Source: Sphagnum compactum
Taxonomy: Eukaryota
NCBI GenBank assembly: GCA_965153455.1
Contig: OZ234494.1
Location: forward strand, 496,001 to 560,000
Reading direction: 5' to 3'
Length of the DNA stretch: 64,000 nt
In this document: piece after piece, positions 1,180-63,228 of the stretch
How positions within the stretch are numbered: position 1 is the first letter of the stretch
How the letters are laid out: every line of letters begins with the position of its first letter
Notes under the pieces: generated by a model
The model's database searches: none
What the model was told of the DNA's origin: nothing
Seen by the model: the letters and a program-made list of their open reading frames with translations, nothing else
Position numbers and translations under genes: made by a program

Positions 1180-4564
<3,385 letters not shown>

Positions 4565-5009
4565 ATTTGTCTTGTGATTGTAGTTTATTTCTGAAGGATG
4601 AAAGACATGAAGAAACAGAAGCTGATAAGGTAGTACAAAATGATGAGGACAATCATTGTTAGTTAAAGAAGCACACAACAGCAATCCTGGATGTTCAAAA
4701 CCAAAATGACATGGACTATATTTGCTGAAATGTTATTCTCAGGTGGGTCCAAAACTGAATCCAAGCTAAGTTTCAAAACCAGAACTGGAACCAGAATTAT
4801 TAAACTAATCTGTGTGCAACTGGGCCTGGAACTGAAATTGAATAGCCTGATTATCCCTGAAATAGCATTAGTCAGCTTTAGAACAACCTTAAGCAGCCCT
4901 GAAAATAATCTTGGTCTTAATTAATCTTAATTATACCTGAATTGCTTTTTTAATGTGAAGTTTAGTCATGTCCTGTAAACCTTACCGAAACCAACCAAAT
5001 TGATCAAGC

Positions 5010-5287
5010 GCATATACATGTGAAGACAAAACATATCTCTATATGCTTCTGCATTTTCTGGATGCATTGGATTCACAAAGAAGAGTCTCAACCAGGTCAA
5101 GAGCATGTAGATGTGATGACAAAACAGATATATCTATATGCTTCCACATTTTCTGCATTGGATTCACAGTGAAGAGGCTCGACCAGATCAAGTGCATGTA
5201 GATGTGAAGACAAACATATAACTATGTATGCTTTTGCATTTTCTGCATTGGATTCACAGAGAAGATGCTCAACCAGATCAAGTGCAC
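5010..5287. repeat. ~90-bp tandem repeat, 3 copies
   Basis: ATGTGAAGACAAAACA..TATGCTT..CATTTTCTGCATTGGATTCACA..ACCAGATCAAGTGCA occurs three times. Confidence 0.85.
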
Positions 5288-7618: not shown

Positions 7619-7711
7619 CATTAGGCTGCTGTGATCACAGTTACACATTGTGTGTAACTATGAAAAATGTGTATTCACACAATGTGTAACTGTGATCACA
7701 GCAGCCTAATG
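7619..7711. repeat. Perfect 36-bp inverted repeat with a 21-nt loop (hairpin or MITE-like)
   Basis: 7619-7654 CATTAGGCTGCTGTGATCACAGTTACACATTGTGTG is the exact reverse complement of 7676-7711. Confidence 0.92.
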
Positions 7712-7868
7712 AAAAGAGACCCTTACTAGGTACTCTACTGCAGGCCAGTCAAGATTAAGCCTGCATGGAGCTCAAGGTAAACTAACTAAATTGCTTGCAC
7801 TCGACAATGCACAAATCATGAAGCAAGCACACTTCAGTGAAGGATTAAGTAGACTAGTGGTGTGTACT

Positions 7869-17476: not shown

Positions 17477-19033
17477 TCAAATCTCCACAACACATGAGGT
17501 GAGAATCACTCCCTGGAATTTCTTGCCCGGTCTCAAAAACTCCCATTTTCCCCTGAAGAGATTTGTTGCAGTTGGAGAGATTTTCAGCTGCTGCTCATGA
17601 TCCTGCAGTTGCTGCTCCTCATGATCTTCTGGTGCTGGTGATGGGTGGTGGTGCTTCAGCTTCATCTTCTTCCTGGAACTGCTGGGACTAGTAGTTGATG
17701 ATCTAGTGTTCTTTGTACTGCAGCTCATCGTGGGAGTCGATGCAGCTGCTGCTGCTGATCTAGTGTTGTAGATCAAAGAGGTGAAAGAGTTGGTATCTTT
17801 GTTCTGAGGTCCAGTGACAAACAGCTTGTGAGAACCCAAAGCTGAGATACAAACGGGTGCAATGATGCTGTCGTCTCCCTCAGGCAGAACATCAAGTAGT
17901 TGCCACTCGTCTGTCTCTGTAGAGTAGCAAACCAAGTCTCGCTTGTGGAATCCAAAGAGCGGCAGAAGAGTTCTCCCTCGACGTAGTTGTTGAGCCGTAG
18001 TAGTAGCAGCCGCTGTACTAGTACTAGTACTAGTACCGGCAACGACAACAACATTGTTGTTGTTACAGTGCAGATTTGTTCGCGTCATTATAGTATTAGT
18101 CCTTGCACCAGCATCCGCAGCGATTCTGCTGCAACGACTTGCACTAGATGATCGAGTACTGCAAGAAGAGCTGGACCTTGATATAACGCCTGCTGCTGCA
18201 TGCGTGAAGACGATGTCAGTTCGAGTCCATTTGTTCAACTTCGGTTTGAAAATCTCGGAAGAACGCACAAACTGCAGGCATTGATGTGAAGCTGCAGATC
18301 TTAATTGGTTGTTATATACATTTCCGCTGACCACGTAAAACTCTTCGTCGATAACTGCTGATGAGCATTCGTCTCTGCTGTCGTTCATGTTAGGCAGCAC
18401 TTGCCAGCAATCTCGCTCGGTGTTATACATCTCGGCTGTAGACAAAGCGTTTCTAGCGTTGTCGTGACCACCAGCCACCAGAACATAGCTACCCATGAAC
18501 GCTTGACAAGCGAAGGAGGAACGAGTGCTCGGCATGTCGGCTCCTCGTTGCCATCTTCTAGTCGCGAAGTTGAACATGTACACAGTTCTTAGCGTCTCCC
18601 ATGTACGAGGATGCCAACCTCCGACGACCAACAACATCCCATTCACAGAAGCCAAACGACAGAAGAGAGGAAGACCATAATGCGAAAACTCGGGGATGGG
18701 TGGTAGCCATTCCCAAACCTGCGATTCCTCGTCCAACATGCTGACGCCGTATGTAGGATGTTGCAGTGAAGGATGCGTTCTAGGAAGCGCTTGTAGCATG
18801 CACACGCAATGTTTTGTCACTCCTTCCTGTTTCCTTTGCTCGTAAAACTCTCTGCTGCTGACGAAGTCTCGCCACTTGCGCGAGACGCCGTGAAGGTGTG
18901 CATGGCTTTGTATGGATACTCGGCTCAAACACCTGTACGCAACTTCATCAGGCAAATCTGGAATCAACCCCTGCTGCTGATGCTCCTGCTGCTGCTGATC
19001 ATGTTTTTCTTCCTCATCTTGCTGCAGCTCCAT
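17477..19033 (-). CDS. F-box/kelch-repeat protein (KFB/KMD-like), single exon
   Basis: F-box LIPDLPDEVAYRCLSRV, then kelch blades LPLFC..VVGGWHPRTWE, WQRGADMP, VAGGHD..NAL..AEMY, RDEC. The first ATG is at 19033; the ORF track start at 19042 is a GTG. Confidence 0.92.
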   Translation of the reverse strand: MELQQDEEEKHDQQQQEHQQQGLIPDLPDEVAYRCLSRVSIQSHAHLHGVSRKWRDFVSSREFYEQRKQEGVTKHCVCMLQALPRTHPSLQHPTYGVSMLDEESQVWEWLPPIPEFSHYGLPLFCRLASVNGMLLVVGGWHPRTWETLRTVYMFNFATRRWQRGADMPSTRSSFACQAFMGSYVLVAGGHDNARNALSTAEMYNTERDCWQVLPNMNDSRDECSSAVIDEEFYVVSGNVYNNQLRSAASHQCLQFVRSSEIFKPKLNKWTRTDIVFTHAAAGVISRSSSSCSTRSSSASRCSRIAADAGARTNTIMTRTNLHCNNNNVVVVAGTSTSTSTAAATTTAQQLRRGRTLLPLFGFHKRDLVCYSTETDEWQLLDVLPEGDDSIIAPVCISALGSHKLFVTGPQNKDTNSFTSLIYNTRSAAAAASTPTMSCSTKNTRSSTTSPSSSRKKMKLKHHHPSPAPEDHEEQQLQDHEQQLKISPTATNLFRGKWEFLRPGKKFQGVILTSCVVEI

Positions 19034-22000
19034 GATGATCACTAGATCTGCAACTGTAGTAGTACTACTACTTCTTTATCCGACTACTTCTTCCACTGCT
19101 GCAGCAGTCGTGGGATGATAATAATCTCTTCAGGCAGATCTAGTCTGGAATCAACCTCTCATGCTCATCTTCTTGCTCCTGATCTTGCAACTCCATGATC
19201 AGTAGATCAACTGTACTACTTCTTCGGCTGCTGCTGCTCCTGATGCAGATCTCTTCACGACAACAACGTCACAACCCTAGCAACCAGACCAGCTGCAAAA
19301 CTGCATGATATTTTTGAATCCAGACTGCAACAACAACAACAACAACAACACAACAAGAATCAAACCCACTCCAACAACAAAAATCCTCAACAAAAACAAC
19401 AACCCACTGCAATCAATCGAGAGAAAGAGAGAGAGAGAGAATTCTCAAGCAATTGTCGAACTCTCAATCGCCTTCATCATCTCCTCTCAAGAGCCATCCT
19501 CTCCTCTGGAGAGGACCGAGGAATCGGTTCAGGCCCGGTTCCGGTGGGTGGAATCAGCTTCTTTCCAAGTTTTTCTTCTTCTTTTCAGGAATCGATTCCA
19601 GGACAAGGAAGAAAGAAAGAAAAGGAGAAAAAGGAAAGTCGTCAGGATTCCAGAGATAGATTCCAGCACGCCAAAGAAAGAAAGAACCAAATCAAAGAAA
19701 GAAACAAAAAGACAAAAAGAAATGAAACAAAAGTCATCAAGATTCCGTAAAGATAAAAACGAACCCCCCAAAAAAAGATGATGAGGTGGGAGGTGTGAAA
19801 GTCAACAGTTCCAATTTCTCACAAATAAGGGAATAATTAATTAATTAAAAAAAGCATCTAGTACCTACTTTAATTAATTAATTAATTAATATTTAGGTGA
19901 TTGCAAGCAAGATATTTTGTACATATTTATTCAGTTTTTTACTAAGTGAAAACACCTCCCAAAAAAAAAAAAAAAAAAAATTCACCTTGTTCTAACATTT
20001 CAAAACAAATGAAATTTTGAATTTTTTTATAAATATTTTAAACGTTCTTTTAACTTTTTAAAATAATTTGTGTCATGTCATTTGAACTTTAAAAAATATT
20101 TCAAAAATATCTCCAACCATTATATCATTTTTCAAAGATTCAAAAATATTTTAATTATAAAAATAAACTTCATTAACCAATATATATATATAGAAATGTT
20201 CAACGCATCAATATTGAGATACTTGGAAAAAACAAAAAATCAGATATTTATAAAAACATTTCATTTATTTTCAAACATTTGAACTTTATTTTTTTAATTG
20301 TCACAAATTTTATTTAGGTACAATTCAAGTACTTGTAAATATTTTTTAAAAAACATGATTATAAAAATTTAATTTTTGAAATTCATGAAAATAAAAATTA
20401 AAAGATTAATATGCCCAAAAATATACGTTATAATTTCATACAAAATATCTATCTACTTGTTAGTTTTTTTAAATTTTCAAATCCCAACATTTTGTTGTTT
20501 ACATTATTTATGTATATTCCATTATGTAAAGTAGTGAAAAATATTAGATCTTTGTGATGGTAAAATGGATGCTTATTATATACTAAGTTCTTTTTAGATT
20601 CTTATACACTTAGGTTCTCCAACCCACTTGGATCTTCAAGTACTTAGTAATGGAACCTTTACTATTTTTTAAGAACTTAAACATCACAACTTTTGAAAGC
20701 ATGTTCCTAATGTATCAATTTTTTTGTCCCAATAGTAAGAAAGACTTTGTGCAATTGTGAACAATTATTTTTGAAAAGGTAAGTATCCAAAGCTACCATT
20801 CCAAACCCTAAACCCTAAACTATTGATAGTGGTACAAGAGTCATGGGACCAACCACTTATGCATTTGGGTACCCCAACTTTATGGTACCCGAACATGTAT
20901 TTTTTTACTTGGTAAAAATCTATTAATTTTTGCATTATTGTTGCCTTCTTCCTTCTAAAGGTTTTTATCCTCATTTCCATTTTTATTTTTCTTACAAAGC
21001 ATCATGAACATGAAATACTTACTAGTTAGGAACTTCAACACTTGCCTATGGGCTGATTGGAATAAGTGATTGTTGAATAAAAAATTTTGTATATGTGATA
21101 TTATACTATGCAAGGTTGAATGACATTTGGCTTCTCTAAAATGGGGCAAGCCTTAGGTATGGGTCCTAGGTAGATGGATAGGAACTTGATTCTCCCTCCC
21201 CCCCTTCCCCCCCATTACAAAATCACAATGTCATTTGGTTTTTGACTAGTTTTTGGGACCCATCACAAGTGGGCATGTCTTTACTTTTAAGCTTTGCTAT
21301 TGACCTTAAATGCAAAAAGCCTTTTATATGTCATGAGGTTTTGTCACTTAGTAGTAGTGACAAGAGTTTCACCCATTGTTCTATCAAGAAGATTAGCCAA
21401 CCCAAAACCTTTTTGAACTTTACTCATCTTCTCCCCCAATTTGCACCCTTGTAAATAACCATTGACCCACCACCCACACCCACAAACATGCTTTTTTTGG
21501 CCAAAACATGCCAATGGTGGTACACTCACCATTGGGTCATTGCATGTGGTGCTTCTTCCTACTTGGTGCTTGGCTAGTAGGAAAGCCAAGCCCCCATGAT
21601 AATAATAGGCACAAGGCATTGACTTGCAACTTTTAGAAGTTCATTTGCACTCGCTTGCATACATGATGACCATTTCATGAAAAGAGTGAGATGTGTGTGT
21701 GTTTTTTTTCATATGTAGATTTCTTTTTTTGAGTGAATAGAAGTTTTTGTGTTTCTTTTTTTGTTTTTTCTTTTTAAATTTATTTTTATTTAATTTATGA
21801 TTGGGGTCAACACAAGTGAAATCTCAACTACACAAATGTTAAGCATCCAAGTGAATTTTAAGACAAAAAAAGGCATTCTTTATACACCCCTTTGAGAACC
21901 ACGAAAATGGTATTATTTTTCAAGACATCATAATATCAAACCATATAGGTACTAGTTACAAACATATGTCCAATTTTATTTCATTTTAAAGATTGAAAAC

Positions 22001-27664: not shown

Positions 27665-30600
27665 TTAAAAGTCACATACCAAGAAAGATGGTGTCTTTGT
27701 CCTCTTGGATTTTGACACTTGAAAAGAAGTTTTCTGGTCTTCTTGAAACTCAGAAAACATCTTGTGTACCTGCTTGAGCACCCAACACAAAAAGAATCAA
27801 TTTTCCAATCTGTGTATCATACTCCCAAATCTACACTCAATGCACAGGTTAACACAAGTACACACAACTTGCAGGCCTAACACAGGAATCCAAGGGTAAG
27901 AAACTTTTATCTCTTGCAGAAAATTCACACCTTCAACACATATAGGAGCAGGAGCAAAGACCCACCTTTTTAACACCACTTGTGAGTCCTAGACCATGGA
28001 TGCTGTCTCCATCAACCCACTTTGTGATCAAGCCATTGTGTGATTGCACTTTATGAGCACCATGGCCTTCAACAGCATCTTCTGCACATAATTGTGTTAT
28101 CAGTCTTCAGTCTCTTCCAAGCAGTGAGTAGAAACCTAGACAATAGACATTGAAGAAGACAGCAAACTAAAGCACAACTTTGTTCATCACAGATTGAACC
28201 TATTCTGCAACCCAACCATTTCAGTGACCACATGGTCAAATGTCACTGAAGTGGAAAAAACTTCAATGATTAGTCAGGCCAAATGTATGGAGGATCAGCT
28301 CCTCTATTTACAAGCTCACATCAAGTTTATCATAAGAGCTGAGCCTTGATGGTGAATAGGAAAAAACAAGTAAAGCTACAAGATCTCTCATATGATATAA
28401 AAAAGGCTTGACAAACTTGAAGGTGAGAAAACACTCTCAAATGACCCCCACTGTTGATTTTCAACACTCTCATTCCAAATTCAAATTTTACAGTTGGGAA
28501 GTTATCTGCCTTCCTTAAGAGGATGCAACAAGAGGAAGGAACTTACCAGAAGAATGAAGCAGCAACCATTCAATGGACATATGAAGGCGAATATGTGAAA
28601 AAACATGAGTGTAACATCCAATCTCCTGACGGTTCACCACCCATGAATCCCTTTGGATCTTCAACCCTAAAGTCTCTTCTAGGTATTTGTCCATTTCTGA
28701 CATCCGCATGCTTATTGAAGCATTTGGGCTCTTGAGTGGGGCTGATGGGAACTCCCACAGGCCTGCAAGTAAACCCTGCTGAGGCCTTTGAACCAAGAGG
28801 AACGAGGAGCTTGCATCACTACTATCCAAGTCGAAACTCCTTTCAACTACACATACTGTGACATACTCATTGCGAGGAATTGCCTTCACAACTTTTGTAG
28901 GAAATAGAGTAACTGAGGAGATTTTTTTCTCATTCTGCCCCACAAGGTCTAGCGCCTTGCAGTGGCTTGCAATAGGACAAGAAGCACAAGAAGGGCTGGT
29001 GGGGCTGCATATTGTGGCACCCAGCTCCATTAAGGCTTGATTGAAATCTCCAGGCCTAATTGCATCAACCAACTGTTTTGCCAGAGTCCTGCCATGAGCC
29101 AAGCAAGGAGACAAGGTCAAAATATACATTCTGCCAGATGTCTTTCAAGATGACCCATATTTCTGCAGTCTTGTGCTCTACAACTCATGTAAGTATAGAA
29201 CTCTCTGATTAACATTTTCTTTCTTTCTTTCATATGCCATCCTTCTGCAGGGACCACAATACTGTCTATGAAGGCAAACCCTAATCTGCCACTAGTGTAG
29301 TAAACAGAAAAGGCACTATACAATCTACAAGGCCCTTGAGACGACAACACTCAACAGTACTGTTTGAACAGGAAAGTTCATCATTCTAGTATCAAAACAT
29401 GGGTGTATAGGGCCCACATTGAAACAAATATTATACCAGAAAAGCTTGACTGTGGTGGAGGCTTTAGGGTTCAAAGTTATTGCCCGCAGCCTGCATAAAA
29501 CTCGAATGACATTTCCATCCACCACCGGGACAGCCTGCATGAGCATTTACAACATGCATCAATATGCCAGCAATGGTCTGATTCAAAAATAGCCCTATTG
29601 CAATCAACTCACATAGGTTAGTGGCTATATGTAAACCAACACGTATCTATCATGGTTGGACATCACACAATGGACTGAACTAGTTTCAAAACACCAACAG
29701 TGTTAAGGAGTAGAGAAGAAGACCAAGACAATCATGCCTGCTTGAATGCTATTGAGGCTATAGCACCAGCTGTATAGCTCCCAATTCCAGGTACTTTCTG
29801 CAGCTCCACCACAGTCCGTGGAAATCTTCCTCCTAGGTTGTGTACAATTTGTTTTGCCCCCTGTCCATCACCATTAAATTCAAATTGCTCCCCACTACAA
29901 CTGAATCCAAAGATTGAAATCTGAGAGCTGAAACCAGCAAAGCTGGTGAATTACCAAAATGGGTGGACTTAAGTCCTCCTAGACCTAGCTGTAAAGTACA
30001 TGAACTGGAGATGCTTACAAATTTTGTATAACTTTGGCACTCTCTTGTTGAACAGAATGAAGTGAAATTGGGACCCTGCTGAGAGTACCTCGAGTAGAAA
30101 ACGTGCACGCCGGTAGTAACCCAGCCCTGCCCATACTGCATTCACTTCCTGCCATCATCAGACCCATTCACCAATTTCATGTGTGTTTTGAAGCTAAACA
30201 ACACCTATTGACACTGAACTGTGAGACTCATCAGAAACATCAATCCTTGTTTAGTTTCAAATGTCAACCCCAGATGGATGTTTCAATTCAAGCCCACGCC
30301 CAGTAATCCTAAACCCTACATCACACCATACTTTTGAAACAATAGAACAACAAATTTGCAATTCACGCACACATGCATGCATGCATCATTATGTGCTTTC
30401 TTGAAGGAGATGAAAGGCTTATGATGATAATGACCTCTTGAGATGCTTGAGCAAGGTGAAAAATGCTTGGCCACTTCTCCATCCAGTTTTGGTAGTACAT
30501 AACAACAGTTGCTACCCTGGTTTGTTGGAGCATCATCTCTGACACCCATACTGCGTAAGCCCTCTGCTCTTGGACATCTATCTGCCAGCCAAAAAAAAAA

Positions 30601-31564
30601 AGAATGCTGGTCATTTCCCCATAGAAGCTTGCTGAACCCATGATGCTCATCATTTCAAAGTAGAAATCACTGCAACACAAGATGCTCATTATTTCCGTGC
30701 GGGATACAAGATATTGCAGAGGAGGATTTCCCTACTTTGATTGTATGAGCACAGAATTACCACAAATCTAAAGAACAGGAAAGGGCTTTGCAGGTTTCTG
30801 GAAGAGAAATTGATGCTTACCGGCTGATGATTGTCAGGCTTAGTCGTGGTCGACGTTGCAGCTTTAGGTTGCACATTCTTCTCCTGCTGTTTGACTCCAG
30901 TTCCATCAACAACTACAATAGGAGGAGCTTGCAGAAGAGAGTGAGGATTCAGCCGCCAAGGCAAAACACGATGGTTTCTATCGTACCAGCTCAACAAACT
31001 GCTTCTGATGTCAACAACCTCCTCTGCAGAAAAGGAAAAAGTTTCAAACGGCAGCTGCTGTTGCTGCTGCTGTTGCAAAGGCCAGAAATCTTCGATATCA
31101 TCAGCGGAAGACACCAATGCCAAATTCTCTGCTTCTTCTTCCTCTTCTTCATCTACGTCATCGTCCGCTGCATGACTCCTCGACTTCAGTCGCTTCTTAG
31201 CTGCTCTCAGACGTTTCTTCTCACCATGCTGCTGTTTCCTGTCCACCTTCACCGCCCGCGAAACCCTAACAAGCTCTTGCTTGCGAGTAGTTGTTATTTT
31301 CTCACCTACAAAAGAGGGAAGAAGAATATCATCATCTCCCTCAGCACCATGGCCAAGCTCACAAACCTTGCCACCGATTGAAGCTTTCTTCCCTGTAGTA
31401 CTAGCACTGGATCTACAGGAGCTTTGTGGTTGTTGTTGTTGTGTGGTAATAATTCTACAAGAGCGAGTGATAGGAGCCATAACTGAACCGATGATGATGA
31501 TGACGCTGTTACTTGCTTCCGATGCTGCTGCTGCTGCTGCTGCTGCTGAGACGGCGATTATCAT
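27665..31564 (-). CDS. MUTYH: A/G-specific adenine DNA glycosylase (MutY homolog), 8 exons
   Basis: Exons approx. 31564(or 31480)-30821, 30581-30435, 30148-30089, 29860-29738, 29534-29437, 29088-28547, 28081-27966, 27769-27665. Motifs: [36 protein letters not shown], Hh[43 protein letters not shown], 4Fe-4S Cx6Cx2Cx5C, NUDIX-like [19 protein letters not shown]. Confidence 0.93.
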
Positions 31565-35760: not shown

Positions 35761-36034
35761 TTATTGGTGTTTAGTAGTAGTAGTAGTAGTAGTAGTAGAT
35801 GTCTTTGGGGGTCAGATGTGAGAGGGGGGTGTTGTTTCATTTGTATCACCATAGCAAGAAATTGGCTAATGCATTTGTGCTCATGAACACAACTCATGAT
35901 TCTCCATGGCCACCTTTCCAATGGTACCACATCTACTAATGGTGTTGAACTTTGGTCATGTTAAAATACCACTAGACATGCTACCGTAAATAAAATGAAC
36001 TTGATCTAGTGATTGGCAAGTGGGACTAGAGGTA

Positions 36035-37913
36035 TCACCAATAGTCCATGCAAGAACAAACACCATCTTCAAAGTGATGAAAACGATTGGCATCCCGCAC
36101 CATGATGGCTCTCCCAACTATTTTTGAAATGAACTTTGTTGAAGTATGGCAATCATTGCAAACACACAGAGTTTTTTCTTATTCGAAGAGGAGCACCAGG
36201 AGCTGTGTTGATGAGCCTGAATGCAATAGCCAGTTTCTCGCTATTGTGACACAAATGAAATACCTTTCCTTCCTCTTCAACATCATCCAGAACAAATTCT
36301 GTACAAGGCGCATCATACCCAGCAGCATTTTCAGGATCTATTTCAAGAATTCGTTTTGCAATGCGTTCTGCCATCTCCACATTACCATGAATTCTGCAAG
36401 CGCCAAGCAAAGCCATCCAAGCAGCCACCTGTGGTTCACGGGGCATTGCCATGAGCATATTCTCTGCCTCCTGTAGATGGCCAGCATGGCCAAGAAGGTC
36501 AACCATGCAGGTGTGATGTTCCAATTTTGCAGGAATCATGTAGTCTTTTGTCATTGAAGCATACAAGCGCCTGCCTTCATCCACCAGACCTGCATGCTCA
36601 TGGGTACGAGCTGACAGAAGACAAACAAAAGTGACATCATCTGGCTGTCTACCTTCTTCACACATCCATTCAAAATGTTTTAAAGCTTCCTTACCGTGCC
36701 CATGCATGGCACATGCTCCAAGTATAGCATTCCAACTGACCACATTTCGAGATGGCGTCTTGTTGAACACACTCCAAGCATCCTCATTGCTCACACACTT
36801 TGCATACATGTCCACCAAGCTAGGCCCCACAAAGACATCAGACTCAAAACCACTTTGAATGATCTGCTGATGAACACACCTGCCCTCTTCAAGTGCAATC
36901 ATGCTGGCACATGCATTCATCACCCCAACAAAAGTGATAGAGTTTGGCCGCACACCTTCCTGTTGCATTTGTCGAAATAATTCCAGTGCCTTCTGCCCTT
37001 GCCTGCATTGCACATGTCCCAATTATCATGGTGGTCCAAGTGACAACATCTCGAGATGACATCTTGTTGAACACTCTCCAAGCATCCTCAATGCTGCCAC
37101 ATTTTGCGTACATGTTAACCAAGCTACTCCCGAGAAAGACATCAGATTCACAACCATTTTGAATGAGCTGTTCATGAACAAGCCTGCCGTCTTCAAGTGA
37201 TCCTAAACCAGCACATGCCTTGACTGCCTGAACAAAAGTGAATTTGTCAGGACTCATTCCTTCTTGTTGCATTTGTTGGAAAAGCTGCATTGCCTTCTCA
37301 TGTTGCCCAGCCTGTACATATTTTGTAAGCTTCCGATTCCATGCAAAAGGGTGCAATTGCACAATGTCTGGTGCCATTGCAGCCCTCTCTGCTGCCACCC
37401 ATGGTGGGTTTTGTTGGCATACAAGCCAGAGTGCTTCCCCTGTCGTCTTATGTTTGAAATCTGGGTACCTTTCATTTTGCTACAACAAAGATCCAGGTCA
37501 AGCTGATCAGCCATGCATTCTCCACATCCCAGGCATAACTATTAGCATAAGAACAGAAAAAAGGCTGCTCTGACCTTCTTCATCAGCATATTGCATCTAA
37601 TTACCTTCTCAAGCTTACTACAACTATCCCACCAGTGCAAATGATGTGAAAGAACTTCTGCCAACATTTAGCCATGGCATGATAACAACCAAGAGAGAGC
37701 AACAAAATTTGACATCAACAAGACATGTGAATTCTGACAGGATTGATGTCCAGTTACCTTCTCTGCTCTGTGATCCCACCATTGTGAAGGATCCAAAAAG
37801 AACTCCTGCCACTGTTTCTCTCTCGGACCTATAGGTACTGCAGAAAAAGTTCCTTTCAAATCATATAGTTTGATCACAAGGAAGCCATCTCTAGGTTCTG
37901 CGTCCCTGCACAT
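36035..37913 (-). pseudogene. PLS-class PPR-DYW RNA-editing factor with an N-terminal OSB-type PDF motif; frameshifted, with an internal deletion
   Basis: Exon 1 37913-37758 (donor AAG|GTAACT), exon 2 from 37479 (TAG acceptor). P-L-S motifs (LVNMYAKCGSIEDAWRVFNKM, VVSWNAIL..AMHGHG) and E1 (CMVDLLGHAG..WMALLGACRIHGN). The DYW domain ends [25 protein letters not shown] at 36035. One-base insertions at ~37022 and ~36170. Confidence 0.9.
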
Positions 37914-39115
37914 AAGGTGTCCAATTTTTCGATTGGCTTCTGACGGTTTTCAGGTCAAAATCTTTTGGCCAATAAACCAACCACACTTACTGTGAAAAGA
38001 TGCCAGTAGACACAGAGAGAGAGAGAGAGAGAGAGAGGAATAACGCAAGAAACTCACATCTATCTCCTGGTGCATTTGGACTAGTGAATAAAACGGTTGC
38101 CCCTCAGAATGTGTCATGCTTTTGTTTTGTCTGCAATACACTTTCCAGTTGATTTTCAGATTCTGAAAAAATTGGATCTGATAGCTGTCTCTATTGGTAC
38201 TCTGATTTTCTTTATGTCTGAGGAGATTTGCCAATTTGGTAGTGAAATGAGACACAGGCCAGGATGCAAAGTTTTGGGAGGCTGATGATGATGAAGTTTG
38301 CAAGAGATATGGCAGAAATGAGAATGCAGACGACTTTCTCTCTTCACTATCTTGCTCATGCAAATGTGGCTCCAACTAGCTTTTGTTTCTTTATCAGTGC
38401 AACAAGATCTCAAATGTTCTTGGCATAGAAACTTCAATCACAGGAGTCTTCATGCTGGAGTTTCCTTAAGAATTATTCAATTGAGGAAGAATGCTTGATT
38501 GTGGTCTGGCACTAAACCAAGATTGCAGAAGTTGGTCTGTCCAATTTACCCTGAAGTTGATTTCAACCAGCAACCCAAGCAGACATTTGTCTTTCAAAGA
38601 TCATGTACTCAAAGATGAGGGGAGGGGTTTTTGAAGTTATCTGCCCACTGGGATCAGGTCCTTTCTAATAGAGAACTGAAGTGAAGTGTCTAGAGAAGAT
38701 GATGCAATTAGTGACATGCCCCTAATCTGCAAATATGTCTAGCAAAGGCTCTATTGTTGTCAGCTGCCTTGACATTACTCAAGCAGAAATGCTCACTGAA
38801 AAATGCTCAAGGAAAGTGGGAGACATACCATTTGAACTTCACCAGCTTCAGTAGCACCTGCTCGAGTGAGAAGGCATCCTGAATCTTCAAGGACACCCCG
38901 TATTCTATTAGCATGCAATTCAAGGCTCCAATTCAAGAATTTTTGTTGGACAATGTTCTTGGGTGTTAAAGAGTACAACATGTATATACACCCCTAATGT
39001 TACTATTGACACAAATCTATTATAAACTAATCAAAGGGGGGGAGGAACAAAAACTTTGTCAGAACTCAAAAGGTAGCTTGTCTTTGAATGAATTAGCATC
39101 TTGTTAACAAACCCG

Positions 39116-42055: not shown

Positions 42056-44817
42056 ATGGGGTCAGGAGGAAAAATGAGGGATGGTAGACCTCCACTGCCA
42101 GTTTCGGTGGGAGCCCAGATGAAGGAGGATGGGGATGGTGAAGCAGCAAATGGTGGGGATGATGGGGAAGCATCCGAAGCTGTGAAGAACCATTTGAAAC
42201 AACAGGTGTTGGCCTTAACAACACAGGTGGAAGAGGTGTGGGCTTTCATAAACCCTAACCCCCTTGTTGCTTGTTTTTCCCAGTTTGCACTTCTAGTCAT
42301 TTAACCTCCAGATTTGCAGTTCCAACAAATGAGAAGTAAAAGAGGCTAATGCCCTGTACCTTCAAGATTTGGATGTGGTGTGGGAAAGGAAAAACAGGGG
42401 GAGGGGTGAGGGATATAACTGGTGCAAGAAGAACTGACAAGTGAAGAAAAGCTGGTGAGGAAAAGCAGATTGAGAAGAATGTCAATGAAGTGAGCAAGAT
42501 GCGGAGTATGGTGCGCAAGAGCAAAGGCAAGGTAGCCACTGCTGCAGCTAAGGAAAAGGAGCGCGATAAAGGAGGTAGCTCTGCAGCAAACAAGAAACAA
42601 CAACAGGTGGAGGCAGAGCGTCGAGAGGCTGCACGGGTTAAGCGAATGCAGGAGCTAATGCGGCAAGTAGGCACTGTACTTAGGCAGGTAAACACTCTGA
42701 TACCCACATTATACCCATGCTCAAGCTTAGCATGCAAAACATCACGTTATTGACTAGAGTTGAATCCTGCACCCTGCAAATTGATAGTCAGTTTTGCTGG
42801 CTACAAGTGGAGCGTCAATGAGTACGAAATATGTGTGTGTGTGTGTGTGTGTGTGTATTAAATTAGGGTTTAAGGTTTAGGAGTTTGGTTAAAATGGGTG
42901 TTTGGGTTTCAAAGCTGATGTGGTCAGGGAAGAGAAATAAATCTGGCTGCCTGCAGATAACCCAACACAAATGGGCATGGCCATTTATGAAGCCCGTCGA
43001 TGTGAAGGGCCTTGGGTTACATGATTACCATGAGGTCAGTATGTTTAACATATCTCTCAGTACTTGATCCTGAAACACACTGATGAGTGTATCTTGGGTC
43101 ATAGGAAGATAGAGGTGCCAGCTCTCTGCATGTGATCACAGTGCGTTCAGAAGCCCATGTTGTTTTGCGGTGGATTAGGGTTCTTTCAGCAGCATGGGTT
43201 GTATCTAGATTTTCAGGTTTTTATGTTACACACCACCATTCAGAACTCCAGAAACCACCGAGATCTTTCATATCAACGTATCCTAACATCTCTAGTCACA
43301 ATGGAGCAGGTGGTGAAGCATCCGATGGATTTGGGGACAATACGGGACAGAATGGATGCAAAGGATGGGACAGGATACAAGCACATCCAAGAAATTTGTG
43401 ATGATGTGCGCCTGGTTTTCTCCAATGCAACAAGTTATAATCAGGATGGCTCAGATGTGCATACGATGGCCAAGACCCTCTCAGACAAGTTTGAAGAGAA
43501 ATGGAAGGCCCTTGTTGAACCCAAACTAGCTGAGGAGGTACTTCCATTCGTTACCAAGAAGCATTTGCACAGACTCCTTTGTATTGGAGTATTGGATACA
43601 GAGATGTACAGTCTTTCCTGTATCAGACAATTGCCACATTGTTGTGGGGAACAAATCTAACTATGTTGGTTGTTGGTTACTCGATTTGCAAATTGCTAGA
43701 CTAGTGAGTTTGATTCTAAACCCTAAATGTTTCATCAGGAAGCAAAGCGGAAACAGGAAGACAAAGAAGCACAGACAAAAGAAGACGCAGCCATACAGGC
43801 AGCAGATGAGGCAGCTGCTGAAAGGATGGCTGACGATTTTGCTTGCCAGGTGCAATACTGGTAGCAAGTCTGATGATATGGGAAGCTCTTGTGGTCAGGG
43901 ATCAACTCCTGACTCTTGTTTGGAACTGTGAACTTTTGTTTTTGGCCCCCAAAAGACTTTCCCTCAGAGACAAATTCCTGGTGTTGTAAAGATCTAACGT
44001 ACTGCACCTGCTGTTTGCAGCTAGAGGAACTGGACAAGAAATTGGAAGACCTGAAGCAACAAACTACTCCAAAGAACAGGTATGTGGGTCTGAAATTCAG
44101 CATGTTTTCTGTTGCTTCCAGGTTGTTTTGGGTTTCCGTTCAGCTTGTGTGTTTCTTCATGAATCTGGTGGTTTTGTTTTTGATTCGTGTTTTTTGTAAA
44201 GCAGTCGGGCAATGTCAATAGAGGAGAAGCGGCATTTGGGTCACAGCTTAGGACGCCTACCTCCAGACAATCTCAACCATGTCATCCAGATCATTGCTCA
44301 AAAGAATCCGGAGTTCAATGCAACTGCAGATGAAGTGGAAGTTGACATTGATGCTCAGGTTTTGTCCCCTCTTCTTCTCAGACATACGAATGTACATAAT
44401 CACACACAAAAAAAAAACTTAACACATCTCTCCAATCTTCCAGACATAATAAAGAAGAGTAGATGATAAACACGTGACCCAAATGTGTGACGCTTTGAGT
44501 AAACAGTTCACATGGTATTCTATGTGACTCTATCACAGAAATGTGTTACTAAATCCACAAATACAACTTGGAAATAAAACAGGAGATTGAATGCCACCAA
44601 GTTGGCACAATCGGGCAGAGTTATTTCAAGATGGGTTTTGCTATGGTTGCAGGATCCTGCAACTTTGTGGAGGCTCCACCGTTATGTGCAAGCTGTGTTG
44701 AGTCCAAGAACTACAAAAACTGTCACTCCCCGCACACCTTCTGGTAAGCGAGCAGCATCGTCACCAGCACACAAGAGTCCAAGCAAGCGGAGCAAAAGAG
44801 TGGTGTCACCACCTTGA
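42056..44817 (+). CDS. GTE1: Bromodomain + ET-domain transcription factor (GTE1/IMB1-GTE6 type), 8 exons
   Basis: Exons approx. 42056(or 42074)-42235, 42469-42687, 42957-43034, 43310-43538, 43739-43849, 44021-44079, 44205-44358, 44653-44817. Motifs: KRMQELMRQ..LRQ|ITQHKWAWPFMKPVDVKGLGLHDY, PMDLGTI, DVRLVFSNA, and ET domain MSIEEKRHLG..L..VIQIIAQ..EVEVDIDAQ|D..TLWRL. Confidence 0.9.
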
Positions 44818-47380: not shown

Positions 47381-47821
47381 CAGACTGATAGTCCAAGAAT
47401 TGGGTCGAAGAATCTTGAAGCTAATGTTGTCTTCTGATTGCGAAACTCCCTGAAACTAGGGTTTGAAGAAGGAGCTTTGTGAGCAAGCAAGCAAGAGGAG
47501 GATGTCGCTATTGTCCTTTGAGCAACAACGCATGAGAGTGACTGAATGGGAGCGAGAGTAAGCACTGGAGTTGAAGCTTGAAGATAAGATTGTCTGCTCC
47601 TGCGAGAAACTGAGGCTGACTAGAAGAAGTGGGTGTTGCTGAAGATTGGAGACCCGAGAGAAACTTAGGGTTTACAGTAGCGAACTCGGGCTGGTGAGGA
47701 TTGTAGATCTGGGAGCAGCTCAGACTGACAGCAGCAGGAGCAGCAGCAGGAAGAAGAGGTGGGTTTGAAAATTGGGTCGAGTCTAGAAAGGCTGAACAAA
47801 CACGAGAGAAGCTCAACAGCC

Positions 47822-49231
47822 ATGGTTGGTGCAATGAATACAAACAAGAAAGTGCAGATAGATGTGGGAGGTACACTCTTCACAACAACTCTAGATACGC
47901 TGCAACGCGCAGGGAAGGACTCGAAGCTCTACCGTCAAGCTTTGGGAAGAGGAGGAGGAGGAGGAGGAGATTCGCCAGCTGAAGAGGAAGATTGCTTCTT
48001 CGACAGAGATCCAGAAACCTTCAAGGTTTTGCTCAATCTGTTGAGGACGGGAGAAGTGAACACGGCGGGTTTCGATGGGTACACTCGCGACAAGGTGATC
48101 GAAGAAGCGACCTACTATGGCCTGCTGGAGAAGCTCAAGAACGCCATGGCACCTGCGCAGCTGAATGGACTGGACTTACAGAAGGCGAAAGCGGTGATTC
48201 CTAATGGAATCGACATCCCCACGGCTCTTGCAGCAACAGAAGATGGGTCTCTTTGGGTGGCGCATGGAAGCAAAATCACAGTCTACGACTGGGCACTGCG
48301 GAAACAGCAGACGACTCTGACGGAGTTCAGCTCTATCGAAATTCTGAACCGGATGTCGGATACGCTCGTCGCGGCAGGCGCTTCCGACATGCCGGGACTC
48401 CATATCTACGACCCCATCAACGGCATGCACAAGAAGAGTGTCATCTGGACAGACGCCGACGACCCGCGAGTGTACAATCCAGTGGTGCGTGCGATTGCAT
48501 CCAACGATTCCTCAGTGTTTGCAAGCTTCGAGAGCGGACAGAAACTCGACAACGCGTTGGCGATCATCGACAAAACAACGCTACAAATCACTCGGGAATT
48601 TGGACGACAAAACGGCGCCACAGCACATGCGAAAGCGAGCACTAAGCTCCAATGGCTTGCTTCTAAGAGCCTCCTCCTGGTCGCCTCTGTACAAGGAGGC
48701 TCGTTCGGGTATGCTGGCTACATGCGCCTGTGGGACATTCGATCCGAGAAGCTGGTATGGGATTGGAAAGAGCCCAATTTCCAAAGTGCGAGAGCCGTGG
48801 ATCATGAGATGTTTTCCGACATGACGGCCAACGAAGGCCTCAGAGCCATTTTCAAGGTGAGCATCTCCTCTGGTTCTGTCTCTATGGCGGATTTGCGGCA
48901 TCTGGATACCAAGGATCCTTGGATTCCGTTGCTAGATACTAACCCGGCGCTGGAGAAAGCCCCTGGCGGTGCGGACAACAAGCTCTGCACTTACAACAAG
49001 CAGTTGTATCTGAGTCGTGGTGCCGATGTCGAGGTTTGGTCTGAGATCCCCTTGGCTGAAAGCTTCAAAGATCCTGATGAGAAAGAGTATTGGGATACTT
49101 CCTTTCGAAGGAACTTGCTAGAGAACCGCCGCCATAGCGCTCAAGAAGTCACACAGATGGTCGCTGCTGCTGATCGCCTCTTCATCACTCGCAAGGACTT
49201 GCAGGGAGTGGAAGTCTGGGAAACTAGATAG
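47822..49231 (+). CDS. BTB/POZ (KCTD-like) protein with a C-terminal WD40/YVTN-like propeller, single exon
   Basis: KVQIDVGGTLFTTT..L, FFDRDPETFKVLLNLLRTG, EEATYYGL, WVAHGSKITVYDW, KLQWL, LWDIRS..VW, DRLFITRKDLQGVEVWET match the plant BTB-WD family. First ATG at 47822. Confidence 0.9.
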   Translation: MVGAMNTNKKVQIDVGGTLFTTTLDTLQRAGKDSKLYRQALGRGGGGGGDSPAEEEDCFFDRDPETFKVLLNLLRTGEVNTAGFDGYTRDKVIEEATYYGLLEKLKNAMAPAQLNGLDLQKAKAVIPNGIDIPTALAATEDGSLWVAHGSKITVYDWALRKQQTTLTEFSSIEILNRMSDTLVAAGASDMPGLHIYDPINGMHKKSVIWTDADDPRVYNPVVRAIASNDSSVFASFESGQKLDNALAIIDKTTLQITREFGRQNGATAHAKASTKLQWLASKSLLLVASVQGGSFGYAGYMRLWDIRSEKLVWDWKEPNFQSARAVDHEMFSDMTANEGLRAIFKVSISSGSVSMADLRHLDTKDPWIPLLDTNPALEKAPGGADNKLCTYNKQLYLSRGADVEVWSEIPLAESFKDPDEKEYWDTSFRRNLLENRRHSAQEVTQMVAAADRLFITRKDLQGVEVWETR

Positions 49232-60273: not shown

Positions 60274-60492
60274 AATGAGATGTTGTTGTTATTCGAGTGT
60301 TGTCTTGTTGTGATTGCAAGTGTTGTGTCGTTGTGATTACAAGTGTTGTTGTTGTGATTGAGTGTTTGTTGTTGTGATGTTGATGTGACCCAAGTCTTCT
60401 CGTTTGTTTTTGGGGGGTGGAGGGGGAGGTTGTGGTGGTGGTGGTGGTGGTGGTTAGGGGAGAGAGAGAGCGGGGGTGGTGGGTGGGGGGAG

Positions 60493-63228
60493 ATGGCGGC
60501 AGCTCACTTCTTCCCCTCAGAGGTGACGAGGGGAAGAACAAGCAGTACTACTACTAATAAGCTCTTGTTGTTGCAGCGTTTTTGCGGTAGTGTGTTGCTG
60601 TTGGGGAGTAGAGAATTGGGTTGTGTTGCACATGAAGACACAGCAGTGGACGTGGAAGCATCATCATCATCATGGAGGGGAGGTGGAGAAGGAAGTGGAA
60701 TTGGAGATGGAGATGGAAGAGCAGGAGGAGGAACAAGAAGAAGAAGGGTAGATGGTGGTGGTAGTGGTGTGATGATGGTGGAGCAACAAGAGCAGCAAAG
60801 GGGAGGAGGAGGAGGAGGGCCAGGAGTGCAGGGGGTGTTTTTGGGATGTCCTGGAGTGGGCAAGGGAACATATGCTAGTAGGCTTTCCAAGCTCTGGCAA
60901 GTGCCACACATCGCTATGGGCGATCTGGTGAGACAGGAGCTTTCCAAATCTTCATCTATGGCAAAACAGGTGTGTTGCAAATGTTCCAGTCTTTGGGGTT
61001 TTTTCTTTCTTTGTGTTTCTCCACCCACCCACCCATCCTCTCCTTCTTCTTCTTTTTCTTCTTACAGAGGAATCACTGCTGGGTTTTGTTTTCATTGTAG
61101 AGATGCAGAAGCACCACAGCTTGTGTTTTCCTTCCCCCATTTTTTTCTCTCTCAACTGTCTCCCTGCTTGTTTGTTTGTTGTGTGTACTCAGAATCTTAC
61201 CTTTTGAAATCATGCCTTCTTTTTTCACAGATCGGTTCTATGCACCACCTTCCCCTTATCTTCCCTCTTGCATGTAGATGGAGTCTCCTTCTTACAAGCT
61301 GACTGTCTCTTGGATCGTTCAAATGGGATGTGGGGGGACAGCCATGGCTCTTCAGTGATGATGCACTTTCTTGCTTTCTTTCTGTCTGTAGCTAGGATGG
61401 CACCGGATTGATGTGAAGGAGAAATGGGAACACTGATACATAAGATATATATGCAAACCTTTCCCTTCAACCAATCATAAACAGAATTCAACTATCGACA
61501 TACATCTTCTGTACACCTGCCAGTGATGCTTTTGGATGGGGATCATATGCACCCAAAGGTAGGTGTAGCTCTTGGTTGATGATGATGATGTGTGGGATTT
61601 CTTCAGAAACATTTGCTGAACTCCCTCCCTCATGTTAAAGGATGAGAAAAGAATGAGTGTGGAATTTTGCAAATTCTTCAAAGTGTTGAAATAGAGCTCA
61701 GGTTTCAGATTTTCTGGCAATTGGCAATCAATTTTGCAGCTTGAAGCCTAATGATAAGTACTGAGTTTTTCAATTAGCTGTGTCTCTTTGAGCTGCTCGC
61801 CAACATCATGACCAAGTCTTCCCATTGCTTCCGGAAATTGCAACAGAAACAACTCTGCACACAGATTTCCTATAATGGTTTTTGCTCAGCTTTTGTGCTG
61901 ATTATTATTTTACTTATCTGTCAACACCCAACACCATCGGGAACTGATGAAGTCAGTGTGTAGTCATGGCAGCTCATCGCTGCTGTGATTTGTGATTGAA
62001 GGTGCCGGGATGTGCTGCTGAAGCCAGTGGGTTGATAAGTCATGGCAGCTTGTCACTGTGATTCATGATGAAGGTGGGTGATTGGTCTGACACTTTGTGA
62101 GCAACTCTCTCTCATAAGGTTATGACTGCATGCACTCTCATTGTTGTGCTACTGTCAAATTGTCTGTTGTTGTGGAGATTTCTCTATAGACTCTCTCTCA
62201 TCATCACTCTCCCCATGTAGTTCTTTTTGTTCCCTCCTCACAATTCTTGATCGTGGTGGTCGTGGTGGTGTTACAGTTGGCGACTTTGATGAGCCAAGGC
62301 CAACTGCTGCTGGATGACATTATCATCTGACTCTTATCCAAGCACCTTGAGGAGACCGTGGAACCTGGCCGATCAGGCTTCATCCTTGATGGATTCCCTC
62401 GCACACTGCATCAAGCAGTAATAATGTTTTCCTCTTTTTGGCAGTATTGCTTGATTTTTGCAGATTTATATGTAATATTGGGGTGGGTGGAATTATATTG
62501 AATTCTGCTGACTATGTTCTATGTGTGCCATGGTGAGCATGAAAGCTTTTAATCACTGGGAGAGTCTGAAATTGTGGGTGTGTAGGAAATGATGCAAGAA
62601 ATGGCAGATGTTAAATTGGTGGTGAATCTGAAGCTGAGGGAAGAGGCATTGATAGCCAAGTGTTTAGGCCACCGTATTTGCAGTCAATGTGGGGGCAATT
62701 TCAATCTTGCAGGATTAGAGATGGAGGAATCAAGTAGTGCACCTCGCATCTTCATGCCACCACCCTCCTGTGCCCCCAAAATGACCACCCGTGCCGATGA
62801 CACAGAAGAAGTTGTCCAGAGACGCCTACACATTTACTATGAAGTGGTTTGTTCATTGAATTTGGGACATTGACTACTAACTAGATCCAGGTTATAGATG
62901 TGCCTAGTAAGCTTCCTGCAGCTCTCATGACCCTTTAGTGCTAGAACAAAAGTGCTCATCCCCATGACTGCAACATGGCAACTGAAAAAGAATTTGATCC
63001 AAAGAACTTGAATCGACTTCCAAACTGATGCAGGGGTTTTTTTTTTTTTTGGGTTTCAATCTACGGAGCAAACCAGTGGAAGATTTCTAGTGCAGGAGTG
63101 GAAAGCTGCTGGATTTTGAGGTGTCTGGAGGGATACCCGAGATGTGGCCACATTTTCTGGCAGCGCTAAATATTGATGAGAAAGTACACACAAACAACCA
63201 TGACAACAGTCAGAAAATGGCAGTGTGA
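60493..63228 (+). pseudogene. ADK: Organellar-type adenylate kinase, 4 exons, inactivated
   Basis: Exons approx. 60493-60969, 62277-62417, 62586-62846, 63067-63228. Motifs: P-loop FLGCPGVGKGTYASRLS, HIAMGDLVR, GFILDGFPRT, CSQCGGNFN, RADDTEEVV, SKPVEDF, GGIPEMWP. In-frame TGA at 62328 and TAG at 63088. The exon 4 acceptor reads CGG instead of CAG. Confidence 0.88.

Follow-up and report, generated by a model that had tools for sequence, protein, structure and literature searches.

A dead gene copy in Sphagnum compactum joins an OSB-type PDF motif to a PLS-class PPR tract and belongs to an apparently undescribed protein family

In plant organellar RNA editing, PPR-DYW proteins both recognise the site and catalyse the reaction, and programmable RNA editors are built on them. 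To our knowledge, only a targeting peptide has been described ahead of the first PPR in known PPR-E/DYW editors. A sequence-specific PPR tract with a second, unspecific nucleic-acid module in cis is found in RRM-PPR and PPR-SMR proteins; for the PPR proteins of the moss Physcomitrium, RRM, LAGLIDADG, SMR, NYN, CBS and SAP are listed as extra domains, with no PDF among them (PMC9459714). RRM-PPR and PPR-SMR proteins differ from the gene described below in that they are P-class and act in splicing, stability or translation, and in their extra domains, which show no relationship to the PDF motif.

The PDF motif itself is known from the OSB proteins. These are nuclear-encoded and carry an N-terminal presequence, an SSB-like OB fold and, behind it, the PDF motif of about 50 residues in one to several tandem copies. 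The motif is held responsible for ssDNA binding in passages of two reviews that cite Zaegel 2006 (PMC6963530, PMC4166229). In a 2026 survey of 182 OSB genes, the presence of both domains was a requirement, and its text never mentions PPR (PMC13393729).

Here, we analyse a window of 64,000 nucleotides from S. compactum, in which an earlier note had proposed an OSB-type PDF motif spliced onto a PPR-DYW deaminase. The PDF motif was searched with an HMM built from OSB-type proteins only (10 PDF motifs from three proteins: one OSB3-like protein each of Chenopodium and Lupinus, and one SSB-domain protein), which was run over all 2715 six-frame ORFs of the window. The gene model comprises the following features, with the evidence for each:

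37758 to 37837, minus strand: exon with the first half of the PDF motif (...REKQWQEFFLDPSQWWDHRAEK), 80 nt; sequence and OSB-only HMM (profile positions 4-25, E=1.1e-5)
37480 to 37757, minus strand: intron that splits the PDF motif, 278 nt, GT-AG, phase 0, with its AG at 37481-37480
37596 to 37663, minus strand: decayed tandem copy, within the PDF intron, of the first-half exon with its donor site
37396 to 37479, minus strand: start of the large exon, with the second half of the PDF motif (QNERYPDFKHKTTGEALWLVCQQNPPWV); OSB-only HMM (profile positions 26-53, E=6.2e-11) and phmmer
37348 to 37395, minus strand: linker of 16 residues from the PDF motif to the first PPR; alignment consensus of relatives
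36315 to 37347, minus strand: PLS-type PPR tract (P-L-S, P-L-S, P2-L2-S2, E1); Pfam PPR families and tblastn to three related proteins (P0040, P0177, P0353)
36035 to 36314, minus strand: DYW deaminase remnant; Pfam DYW_deaminase in two frames and comparison with P0040, P0353, P0346 and P0381

The first-half exon is bordered by an acceptor AG at 37839-37838 and a donor GT at 37757-37756; its 3' end reads ...WWDHRAEK, with 37758 as last base. The large exon opens at 37479 with QNERYPDFKHK... in the same frame and stays free of stop codons into the PPR repeats. The proposed joint from 37758 to 37479 thus holds as a GT-AG, phase-0 splice in frame, but the first-half exon of about 80 nt, which had been read as the N-terminus, has its own acceptor AG and is not the start of the gene. 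A presequence exon further upstream was not found in the window by tblastn with the presequences of relatives (best E about 4). The explanation that the motif had escaped the ORF track because an intron splits it is correct. The duplicate inside the intron lies 147-153 nt from the original exon and carries a 1-nt deletion, a 6-nt insertion and stop codons ahead.

Joined by coordinates, the two halves match the OSB-only HMM with E=4.9e-21 over profile positions 4-53, and the alignment is ungapped at the junction. The third-best ORF of the window reaches only E=0.23, against 6.2e-11 for the ORF of exon 2 and 1.1e-5 for that of exon 1. The signature of about 50 residues, W..FF..P..WWD.R..K followed by PDFKHK..G..LW....P.W, is present, and so are, distributed over the two halves, all ten columns that are invariant in an alignment of 17 PPR-linked and OSB-type motifs (A2). 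The invariant W, D.R..K, PDF, LW and W are common to OSB proteins and the proteins described here. A phmmer search with the PDF piece of the window returns both OSB-type and PPR-type PDF proteins, including proteins that are named OSB3 and proteins with a Pfam SSB match. This is in good agreement with the assignment to the OSB PDF motif made in the earlier note, and on these sequence grounds a chance occurrence is excluded. Pfam holds no model for the PDF motif, and the ORF of exon 1 matches no Pfam family at E<=1. The other hallmark of OSB proteins is missing, as no Pfam SSB match was found in the window ORFs scanned.

Behind the linker, the PPR tract is clearly of PLS class. Two ORF pieces match the Pfam families PPR_2 (E=1.6e-19 and 9.9e-29) and PPR (E=3.2e-14 and 2.2e-18), and the tract aligns triplet by triplet with P0040 and P0177. 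DYW_deaminase matches in two frames, with E=3.5e-9 and 1.2e-20. Behind the PDF motif, the arrangement is that of a PLS-class PPR-E/DYW editor, whose P-L-S triplets, E1/E2 and DYW domain with HxE, CxDCH and terminal DYW are found in intact relatives and in orthologous contigs; the window copy departs from it in E2, the PG box and HxE.

These departures are part of a series of defects. A +1 frameshift lies near 37023 in the PPR tract, where 8 of 8 polyA-RNA reads are one base shorter; another is found in the A6 run at 36172-36177, ahead of CxDCH, and here all 14 RNA reads are one base short at 36171. By block structure, the PPR tract is about 606 nt, i.e. two PLS triplets, shorter than that of the orthologous contigs L001-L005. 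A further 225 nt or so (about 75 residues, comprising E2, E+ and the PG box) have been deleted between two GY codon pairs, so that the GY of E2 joins directly to the GY ahead of VP.T.FVL, as seen by comparison with P0040, P0353, P0346 and P0381. The tract and the deaminase are therefore not separated by E1 plus E2 as they are in L001-L003 and L005. In the HxE zinc site, the His is replaced by Asn (AAT at 36243-36245), giving HNSEK where relatives have HHSEK or YHSEK. The CxDCH motif is retained, as is the terminal ...CSCMDYW with its stop codon (36035-36037), but the deaminase is incomplete, as the PG box is gone, the His ligand is Asn and a frameshift precedes CNDCH. A tblastn alignment that extended past the 75-residue gap had raised the idea that the gap is a feature of the family; this was rejected, since the alignments show that the extension is spurious.

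The defects that can be compared in four orthologous contigs are absent from them: L001, L002, L003 and L005 contain the missing segment, HSE and an unbroken frame. The earlier note had called this copy broken and had pointed to intact paralogues; that the copy is broken and that intact relatives exist is borne out by the two frameshifts, the deletions and the exchange of His for Asn on the one side and by the intact relatives and orthologous contigs on the other. Having lost PLS triplets, E2 and PG box and the catalytic His, and with two frameshifts in addition, the window copy would not be able to edit. Judged from its sequence, the gene copy at 36035-37837 (minus strand) is dead.

Reads at the locus have to be used with care. 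The depth of DNA reads is 1300-12000 across the gene and 30-200 in its flanks; read mapping is mixed and dominated by paralogues, and was used solely for the strand, the two single-base differences and the reads near the junction. Most RNA reads are just 90-95% like the window and were therefore not taken as expression of the window copy. Seven polyA-RNA reads connect 37475 to 37758 with 5 unmatched letters where the window has 4; taken literally, the 5 letters would shift the frame, and the mismatch in number suggests that these reads come from paralogues or another strain. Another 13 RNA reads part from the window sequence at 37830, within the first-half exon. The RNA-seq check of the 37758/37479 junction that had been suggested thus has a divided outcome: splicing is evident in three paralogues with intronless contigs, but the seven reads near the junction do not match the locus cleanly.

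The evidence from paralogues is as follows. The intronless contigs L017/L027, L033 and L045 match the genomic contigs L020, L029 and L038/L039 at 99-100% (L017 at 92.8-100%), and the PDF intron and others are removed in them. They encode a Met, a Ser/Arg-rich presequence of 55-110 residues, the PDF motif and then PPRs. Homologous first-half exons are 79-83 nt long and flanked by removed introns (intronless L027 and L045 against genomic L020 and L039). A GT-AG intron of 86-330 nt interrupts the PDF motif at exactly the same point in 53 of 80 related metagenome loci. A copy of TGGTGGGA lies inside 11 of the 32 long PDF introns of related loci and in none of the 21 short ones. In the Sphagnum clade, a phase-0 GT-AG intron splits the PDF motif, and the first half is placed on its own exon of about 80 nt.

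How widespread the arrangement is was judged from protein searches. A phmmer search with the 75-residue piece of the window gave 1561 matches at E<=1e-3, and the PDFKH core occurs in 37 of the best 150. When 26 proteins with this core were scanned with Pfam, 14 matched PPR families (3 of these also DYW_deaminase) and 2 matched SSB, leaving 10 with none. Source names mark P0045 and the P0042 cluster as OSB3-like, and the OSB-type proteins P0045 and P0147 match Pfam SSB; none of the 14 PDF-PPR proteins does. A PDF profile found 628 proteins; among the 120 listed, about 30 are named OSB1, OSB2 or OSB3 and 17 have PPR families. The PDF motif plus linker of a Sphagnum fallax protein was a more selective query, yielding 80 matches from 89 candidates, all 80 with PPR families. 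The PDF core is present in 78 of these proteins, both motif halves are matched in 71, and 34 end in a DYW-like tripeptide; the complete set of deaminase features (PG box, HxE, CxDCH and terminal DYW) is found in 34-36 of the 80. Residues 1-40 of the exon-2 ORF, used as query in a word-indexed search of proteins of 344-2000 residues, brought up one candidate and no match; in view of the other searches, this marks a limit of that search and not an absence.

By source names, PDF-PPR proteins occur in seven Sphagnum species, the liverworts Calypogeia fissa and Riccia sorocarpa, the lycophytes Diphasiastrum complanatum and Selaginella moellendorffii, and the ferns Ceratopteris richardii and Pteridium aquilinum; in Sphagnum and Diphasiastrum, each genome has dozens of such genes. 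As in OSB proteins, the motif follows an N-terminal presequence and may be repeated, with one to three copies between presequence and PPR tract. Unlike OSB proteins, the family lacks the OB fold, has 55-110 residues ahead of the motif, and carries the motif in front of PPRs that are followed by E or DYW domains. Intact members can be as short as 564 residues, the length of the Sphagnum protein P0040. The linker consensus AAMAPGTVQ..SFSWN is kept in Sphagnum, Calypogeia and part of the Diphasiastrum members; linkers are longer and unconserved in P0010, P0015, P0053, P0100 and P0148, so the motif does not in general stand in a fixed geometry to the first PPR. A DYW domain is missing from the Riccia member, and thus the PDF motif is not tied to deamination. 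Many members are of E or DYW type and, by their domains, would be organellar C-to-U RNA-editing factors.

The fusion in one frame to PLS-type PPRs and a DYW domain, first noted at the dead copy, is therefore also the architecture of many intact proteins of other plants, and the proposed count of paralogues gave 80 PDF-PPR proteins together with 72 of 80 metagenome loci in the same arrangement. In literature searches we found no description of it, in line with the earlier remark that it appeared uncharacterised. The window gene thus belongs to a large family of nuclear PLS-class PPR proteins of spore-bearing land plants that is apparently undescribed.

Constraint was judged by protein conservation across phyla. 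Among 66 aligned PDF-PPR proteins, 13 columns are invariant, and 12 of them belong to the PDF motif. Pairwise identity averages 0.74 in DYW and 0.68 in the PDF part, compared with 0.53 in the PPR tract and 0.27 in the presequence; in its degree of conservation, the PDF part comes close to the deaminase. Resolution is poor in a tree built from 133 copies of the motif. On it, 5 changes of the PPR label are required, and the OSB copies include among them a second, small group linked to PPRs (Pteridium, Ceratopteris and one further). A single origin of the PDF-PPR fusion is possible on this basis.

AlphaFold2 predicts the PDF part as a small helix-strand-helix unit ahead of the PPR solenoid (pLDDT about 88-96) and the presequence as disordered (residues 1-83, pLDDT <50). 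Comparison with solved structures was negative for the PDF alignment profile against PDB sequences (no match at E<=1) and for Foldseek with a 147-residue model against the PDB (no match at E<=1e-3). VIA-align over 48161 chains reached a best Z of 2.8, by which no solved fold can be named; this is not evidence of a new fold.

PPR tracts bind RNA in parallel: the N-terminus points toward the RNA 5' end, and the site of DYW action is 3' of the PPR tract. With this orientation, a PDF motif joined by a short conserved linker to the first PPR would be placed over the nucleotides that immediately precede the recognised sequence on its 5' side. There, it might clamp the single strand irrespective of sequence and thereby increase affinity or residence time. 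As the mode of action of the whole family, such a putative clamp 5' of the PPR tract is proposed tentatively, and we would not call it probable. The preference of OSB1 and OSB2 for ssDNA over RNA, as given in one of the reviews (PMC4166229), favours a contact with DNA instead of an RNA clamp.

Such a contact would mean that the motif has kept its OSB function and binds single-stranded organellar DNA in transcription bubbles, R-loops or intermediates of replication and recombination, and PLS editing factors held on the nucleoid in this way would meet RNA while it is being made. In the two reviews, ssDNA binding by OSB1 is attributed to its PDF motif, which is called sufficient or responsible for it, and OSB1 and OSB2 are stated to prefer ssDNA to dsDNA or RNA (PMC6963530, PMC4166229). 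The presence of all ten invariant A2 columns in the window motif agrees with this, and one to three motifs on long variable linkers would suit a flexible tether. A mere tether would have no need of the short conserved linker of Sphagnum, Calypogeia and part of Diphasiastrum, however, and PPR-linked copies are only 40-47% identical to OSB-type copies, compared with 41-65% (mostly 48-65%) among themselves, so the ligand may have changed. A tether to nucleoids or R-loops had also been suggested in the earlier note, next to a non-editing role; both ideas are speculative, and we regard retention of the DNA tether as somewhat unlikely. Less likely still is its wider version, in which spore-bearing plants would possess a branch of PLS editors wired to ssDNA by the PDF motif, with editing coupled to the nucleoid and the motif serving as the cis counterpart of the trans-acting helpers of seed plants; in the extreme form, the DYW deaminase could also reach cytidines in ssDNA.

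The motif may also contact no nucleic acid at all and serve oligomerisation or the binding of organellar proteins, thereby taking the role of the trans-acting PLS helpers of seed plants. Its richness in invariant Trp, Phe and Pro would suit a protein interface as well, and the PDF-PPR proteins all come from spore-bearing plants; none is from a seed plant among the matches listed (120 of 628), a selection to which this absence is bound. OSB2 is reported as a tetramer, which the corresponding passage does not attribute to the PDF motif (PMC6963530). A module for protein assembly appears rather improbable. That there is no family at all, and the window merely holds a captured OSB fragment or chance look-alike beside a PPR pseudogene, would fit a scrambled region with a pseudogene copy and a decayed exon duplicate in an intron. 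This is refuted: the second half of the motif shares one exon and one frame with the PPRs, the spliced motif matches the OSB-only profile as given above, the arrangement recurs in 80 protein clusters and in nine tenths of the metagenome loci (72/80), and few parts of the proteins are as well conserved as the PDF part. Taking all observations together, the window locus is probably best explained as a dead copy of a PDF-PPR family gene, with the PDF motif as a putative unspecific single-strand clamp.

From this, the PDF motif emerges as a previously unnamed third module beside the PPR and E/DYW parts. Its history is altered as well, since surveys so far covered the motif only together with the OB fold. 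Because intact members of down to 564 residues exist, its function is directly testable. If the motif adds affinity, it would be a ready-made part for the engineering of short PPR editors; if it binds ssDNA, editing would be linked to the nucleoid and to OSB-type genome maintenance.

On the minus strand of the window, a reading frame ends in ...WWDHRAEK with its last base at 37758, followed by GT, and the next frame opens at 37479 with QNERYPDFKHK..., after AG at 37481-37480. The earlier note had described this as an OSB-type PDF motif spliced onto a PPR-DYW deaminase, and its coordinates, GT-AG pair and phase are correct in minus-strand reading. The frame from 37479 runs for 196 codons without a stop into Pfam PPR repeats; further downstream of these, Pfam DYW_deaminase matches in two different frames. 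The following features were located.

Features of the window's PDF-PPR-DYW copy (the last four by comparison with intact relatives)
37837-37758, minus strand: first-half exon, about 80 nt, with a pyrimidine run and CAG ending at 37838
37596-37663, minus strand: decayed tandem copy of the first-half exon and its donor site, inside the 278-nt intron
near 37023, minus strand: extra base
between two GY pairs, minus strand: loss of the E2, E+ and PG-box segment, about 75 residues
36243-36245, minus strand: zinc-binding His of HxE replaced by Asn (AAT), HNSEK versus HHSEK/YHSEK in relatives
36172-36177, minus strand: A6 run, frame shifted ahead of CNDCH

A profile HMM was built exclusively from 10 motif copies of the OSB-type proteins P0045, P0147 and P0042 and searched against all 2715 six-frame ORFs of the window. 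The exon-2 ORF (E=6.2e-11, profile positions 26-53) and the exon-1 ORF (E=1.1e-5, positions 4-25) rank first, and the next ORF follows at E=0.23. The product spliced by coordinates matches gap-free over positions 4-53 (E=4.9e-21), and therefore the splice restores the exact motif spacing. This match is far beyond chance and bears out the claimed OSB type of the motif.

The copy itself is broken, as had been noted, by the extra base, the A6 frame shift, the loss of about 75 residues and the His to Asn exchange. Over 38065 to 35902, a span that takes in non-coding flanks, five loci on metagenome contigs (L001-L005) match the window at 93-96%; they represent this locus in related plants. Each of the five carries about 606 nt (two PLS triplets) that are absent from the window, and in all four that extend so far the 225-nt E2/PG-box segment and HSE are present and the frame is unbroken at CxDCH. 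It follows that only the window's genome or assembly has these defects. A sequencing error could lie behind the A6 homopolymer in particular, but the deletions and the Asn codon are a different kind of change. L002 is open over 754 codons to DYW, and the other four have stops at other places. The window's copy is a pseudogene, and the interest lies in the family behind it.

The window is gene-dense plant nuclear DNA with 39% G+C.

Neighbouring genes named by Pfam
17480-19075, minus strand: F-box/Kelch protein
28518-30731, minus strand: MutY-like glycosylase, NUDIX_4 and HhH-GPD pieces
43136-43657, plus strand: bromodomain exon
47729-49228, plus strand: BTB protein with At2g24240-like beta-propeller
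60358-61299, plus strand: adenylate-kinase-like exon

Given these neighbours, the pseudogene sits in ordinary gene-dense DNA. A (CT)n microsatellite (38008-38045) lies directly upstream of it, and a (TAC)n run (35775-35800) downstream of its stop codon. The longest ORF of the window (860 codons, 7872-10451, minus strand) has no match in Pfam at E<=1e-3 and none in NCBIfam at E<=0.01.

From 35936 to 38041 there is coverage by polyA reads that carry the same species label, with the first mate almost solely on the plus strand, in keeping with a gene on the minus strand if the libraries are stranded in the usual way. Since 209 of the 368 reads show only 90-95% likeness to the window, and DNA depth is 1300-12000 across the gene versus 30-200 in the flanks, the reads derive mostly from paralogues. 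Seven reads join 37475 and 37758, with 5 unmatched letters versus 4 expected from the window.

Metagenome contigs were scanned with 75 residues of the window, which yielded 211 related stretches; 80 loci were kept, and half-motif HMMs were applied to them.

Motif structure in the 80 related loci
second motif half present: 80
first motif half present, at most 1.6 kb upstream: 72
intron of 86-330 nt with GT-AG precisely where the halves join: 53
contiguous motif without an intron: 8
boundaries decayed: 11
first motif half absent: 8

At 96% identity the loci form 38 groups, eight of which stay open from the start of exon 2 through to DYW; the others may hold further introns, so a stop in them is no proof of decay. 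Four of the eight contiguous loci are short contigs (L017, L027, L033, L045). The last three have their genomic counterparts in L020, L029 and L038/L039 (99-100% identity); for L017 the counterpart is L020 (92.8-100%). In these paralogues of the window's copy, the motif intron and others, including the one ahead of the 79-83-nt first-half exon, are precisely absent. We read the four contigs as probable assembled transcripts, while very young retrocopies could in principle have the same structure. Their products begin with Met and a Ser/Arg-rich presequence of 55-110 residues, followed by PDF motif and PPRs; there is no space for an OB fold ahead of the motif. A 101-nt intron within the PPR-coding part (L020:3250-3350) is absent from the intronless L027; a stop in a genomic PPR frame of the family is thus not necessarily a sign of decay. 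L060, L068, L078 and L080, which make up the rest of the contiguous loci, are long genomic contigs (4-42 kb) from a paralogue that lacks the motif intron. Two have an open 754-codon frame to DYW, and either the intron was lost or the paralogue is a retroposed one that is still intact. Motif-splitting introns are either short (86-179 nt) or long (258-330 nt), and the two classes differ by about the length of the 147-nt duplicated unit. A copy of TGGTGGGA occurs inside 11 of 32 long and 0 of 21 short introns, and the pseudo-exon duplication thus marks a subclade.

A phmmer search with the window's own 75 residues (second motif half, linker and first PPR) against 1.84 billion representatives gave 1561 matches at E<=1e-3, with the PDFKH core in 37 of the best 150. 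Among 26 proteins with this core, Pfam found PPR families in 14 (three also with DYW_deaminase), an SSB domain in two and no family in 10; P0045 and the P0042 cluster bear the database name 'protein OSB3, chloroplastic/mitochondrial-like'. A profile of 17 PPR-linked and OSB-type PDF motifs matched 628 of 3518 candidates at E<=1e-3. Among the 120 matches listed, about 30 are named OSB1, OSB2, OSB3 or organellar ssDNA-binding protein, and 17 have PPR Pfam families, mostly from Diphasiastrum. With P0177 of Sphagnum fallax as query (PDF motif and linker), 80 of 89 candidates matched, every one with PPR families: the PDF core is present in 78, the two-half pattern in 71, HxE plus CxxCH near the C-terminus in 36 and a terminal DYW-like tripeptide in 34. 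They come from seven Sphagnum species, the leafy liverwort Calypogeia fissa and Diphasiastrum complanatum; further taxa are Selaginella moellendorffii, Ceratopteris richardii, Riccia sorocarpa and Pteridium aquilinum, and no seed-plant PDF-PPR protein is among the matches listed. Sphagnum members have one PDF copy, those of Diphasiastrum and Pteridium two or three, and all are annotated as 'hypothetical', 'unnamed' or 'pentatricopeptide repeat-containing'. The family of PLS-class editing factors that bear an OSB-type PDF motif at the N-terminus is old, being common to bryophytes, lycophytes and ferns.

Multi-PDF proteins also occur among P0009, P0020, P0261 and P0270, with 8 copies in Kingdonia and 5 in the chlorophyte Sanguina, alongside a protein under the eukprot label PRCOL that contains SSB. 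PDF motifs were found in Chlamydomonas incerta; on their presence in chlorophytes, the available texts of two papers are at odds (PMC4166229 versus PMC13393729).

The family is numerous and strongly constrained. In an alignment of 66 PDF-PPR proteins, 12 of 13 invariant columns fall in the PDF motif.

Mean pairwise identity by region
PDF motif: 0.68 (2145 pairs)
DYW domain: 0.74 (665 pairs)
PPR tract: 0.53
E motifs: 0.54
presequence: 0.27

In terms of protein identity, the PDF segment thus gives no sign of neutral evolution, an outcome that the earlier note had named as refuting its reading. AlphaFold2, given the alignment of 66 rows, modelled P0040, an intact 564-residue Sphagnum member, at a mean pLDDT of 83.2, with residues 1-83 below 50 and the PDF part at 88-96. 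The latter is predicted as a helix (84-100), short strands and a helix (140-146), and is modelled alike in a 147-residue member. Neither sequence profile search nor fold searches returned a solved relative of the PDF unit.

The observation of the earlier note is confirmed and its interpretation supported. No report of a PDF motif or OSB joined to PPR proteins was found in the full-text literature, a coverage outside which subscription papers on fern and lycophyte PPR diversity fall. The available text of a 2026 survey of 182 OSB genes requires both OB fold and PDF motif and has zero mentions of PPR or pentatricopeptide (PMC13393729). The extra domains named in the available text of a Physcomitrium PPR review are different ones, namely RRM, LAGLIDADG, SMR, NYN, CBS and SAP (PMC9459714). 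As for function, we tentatively infer that the PDF motif in PPR proteins would clamp RNA or a single strand on the 5' side. That it is instead a DNA or nucleoid tether seems nearly as probable, and a role as protein contact would be rather unlikely. P0053 of the marchantiid liverwort Riccia sorocarpa (458 aa) combines PDF and PLS parts and lacks E and DYW domains. Marchantiid liverworts are said to be without organellar RNA editing; if this is true, the PDF motif of P0053 would be useful apart from editing.
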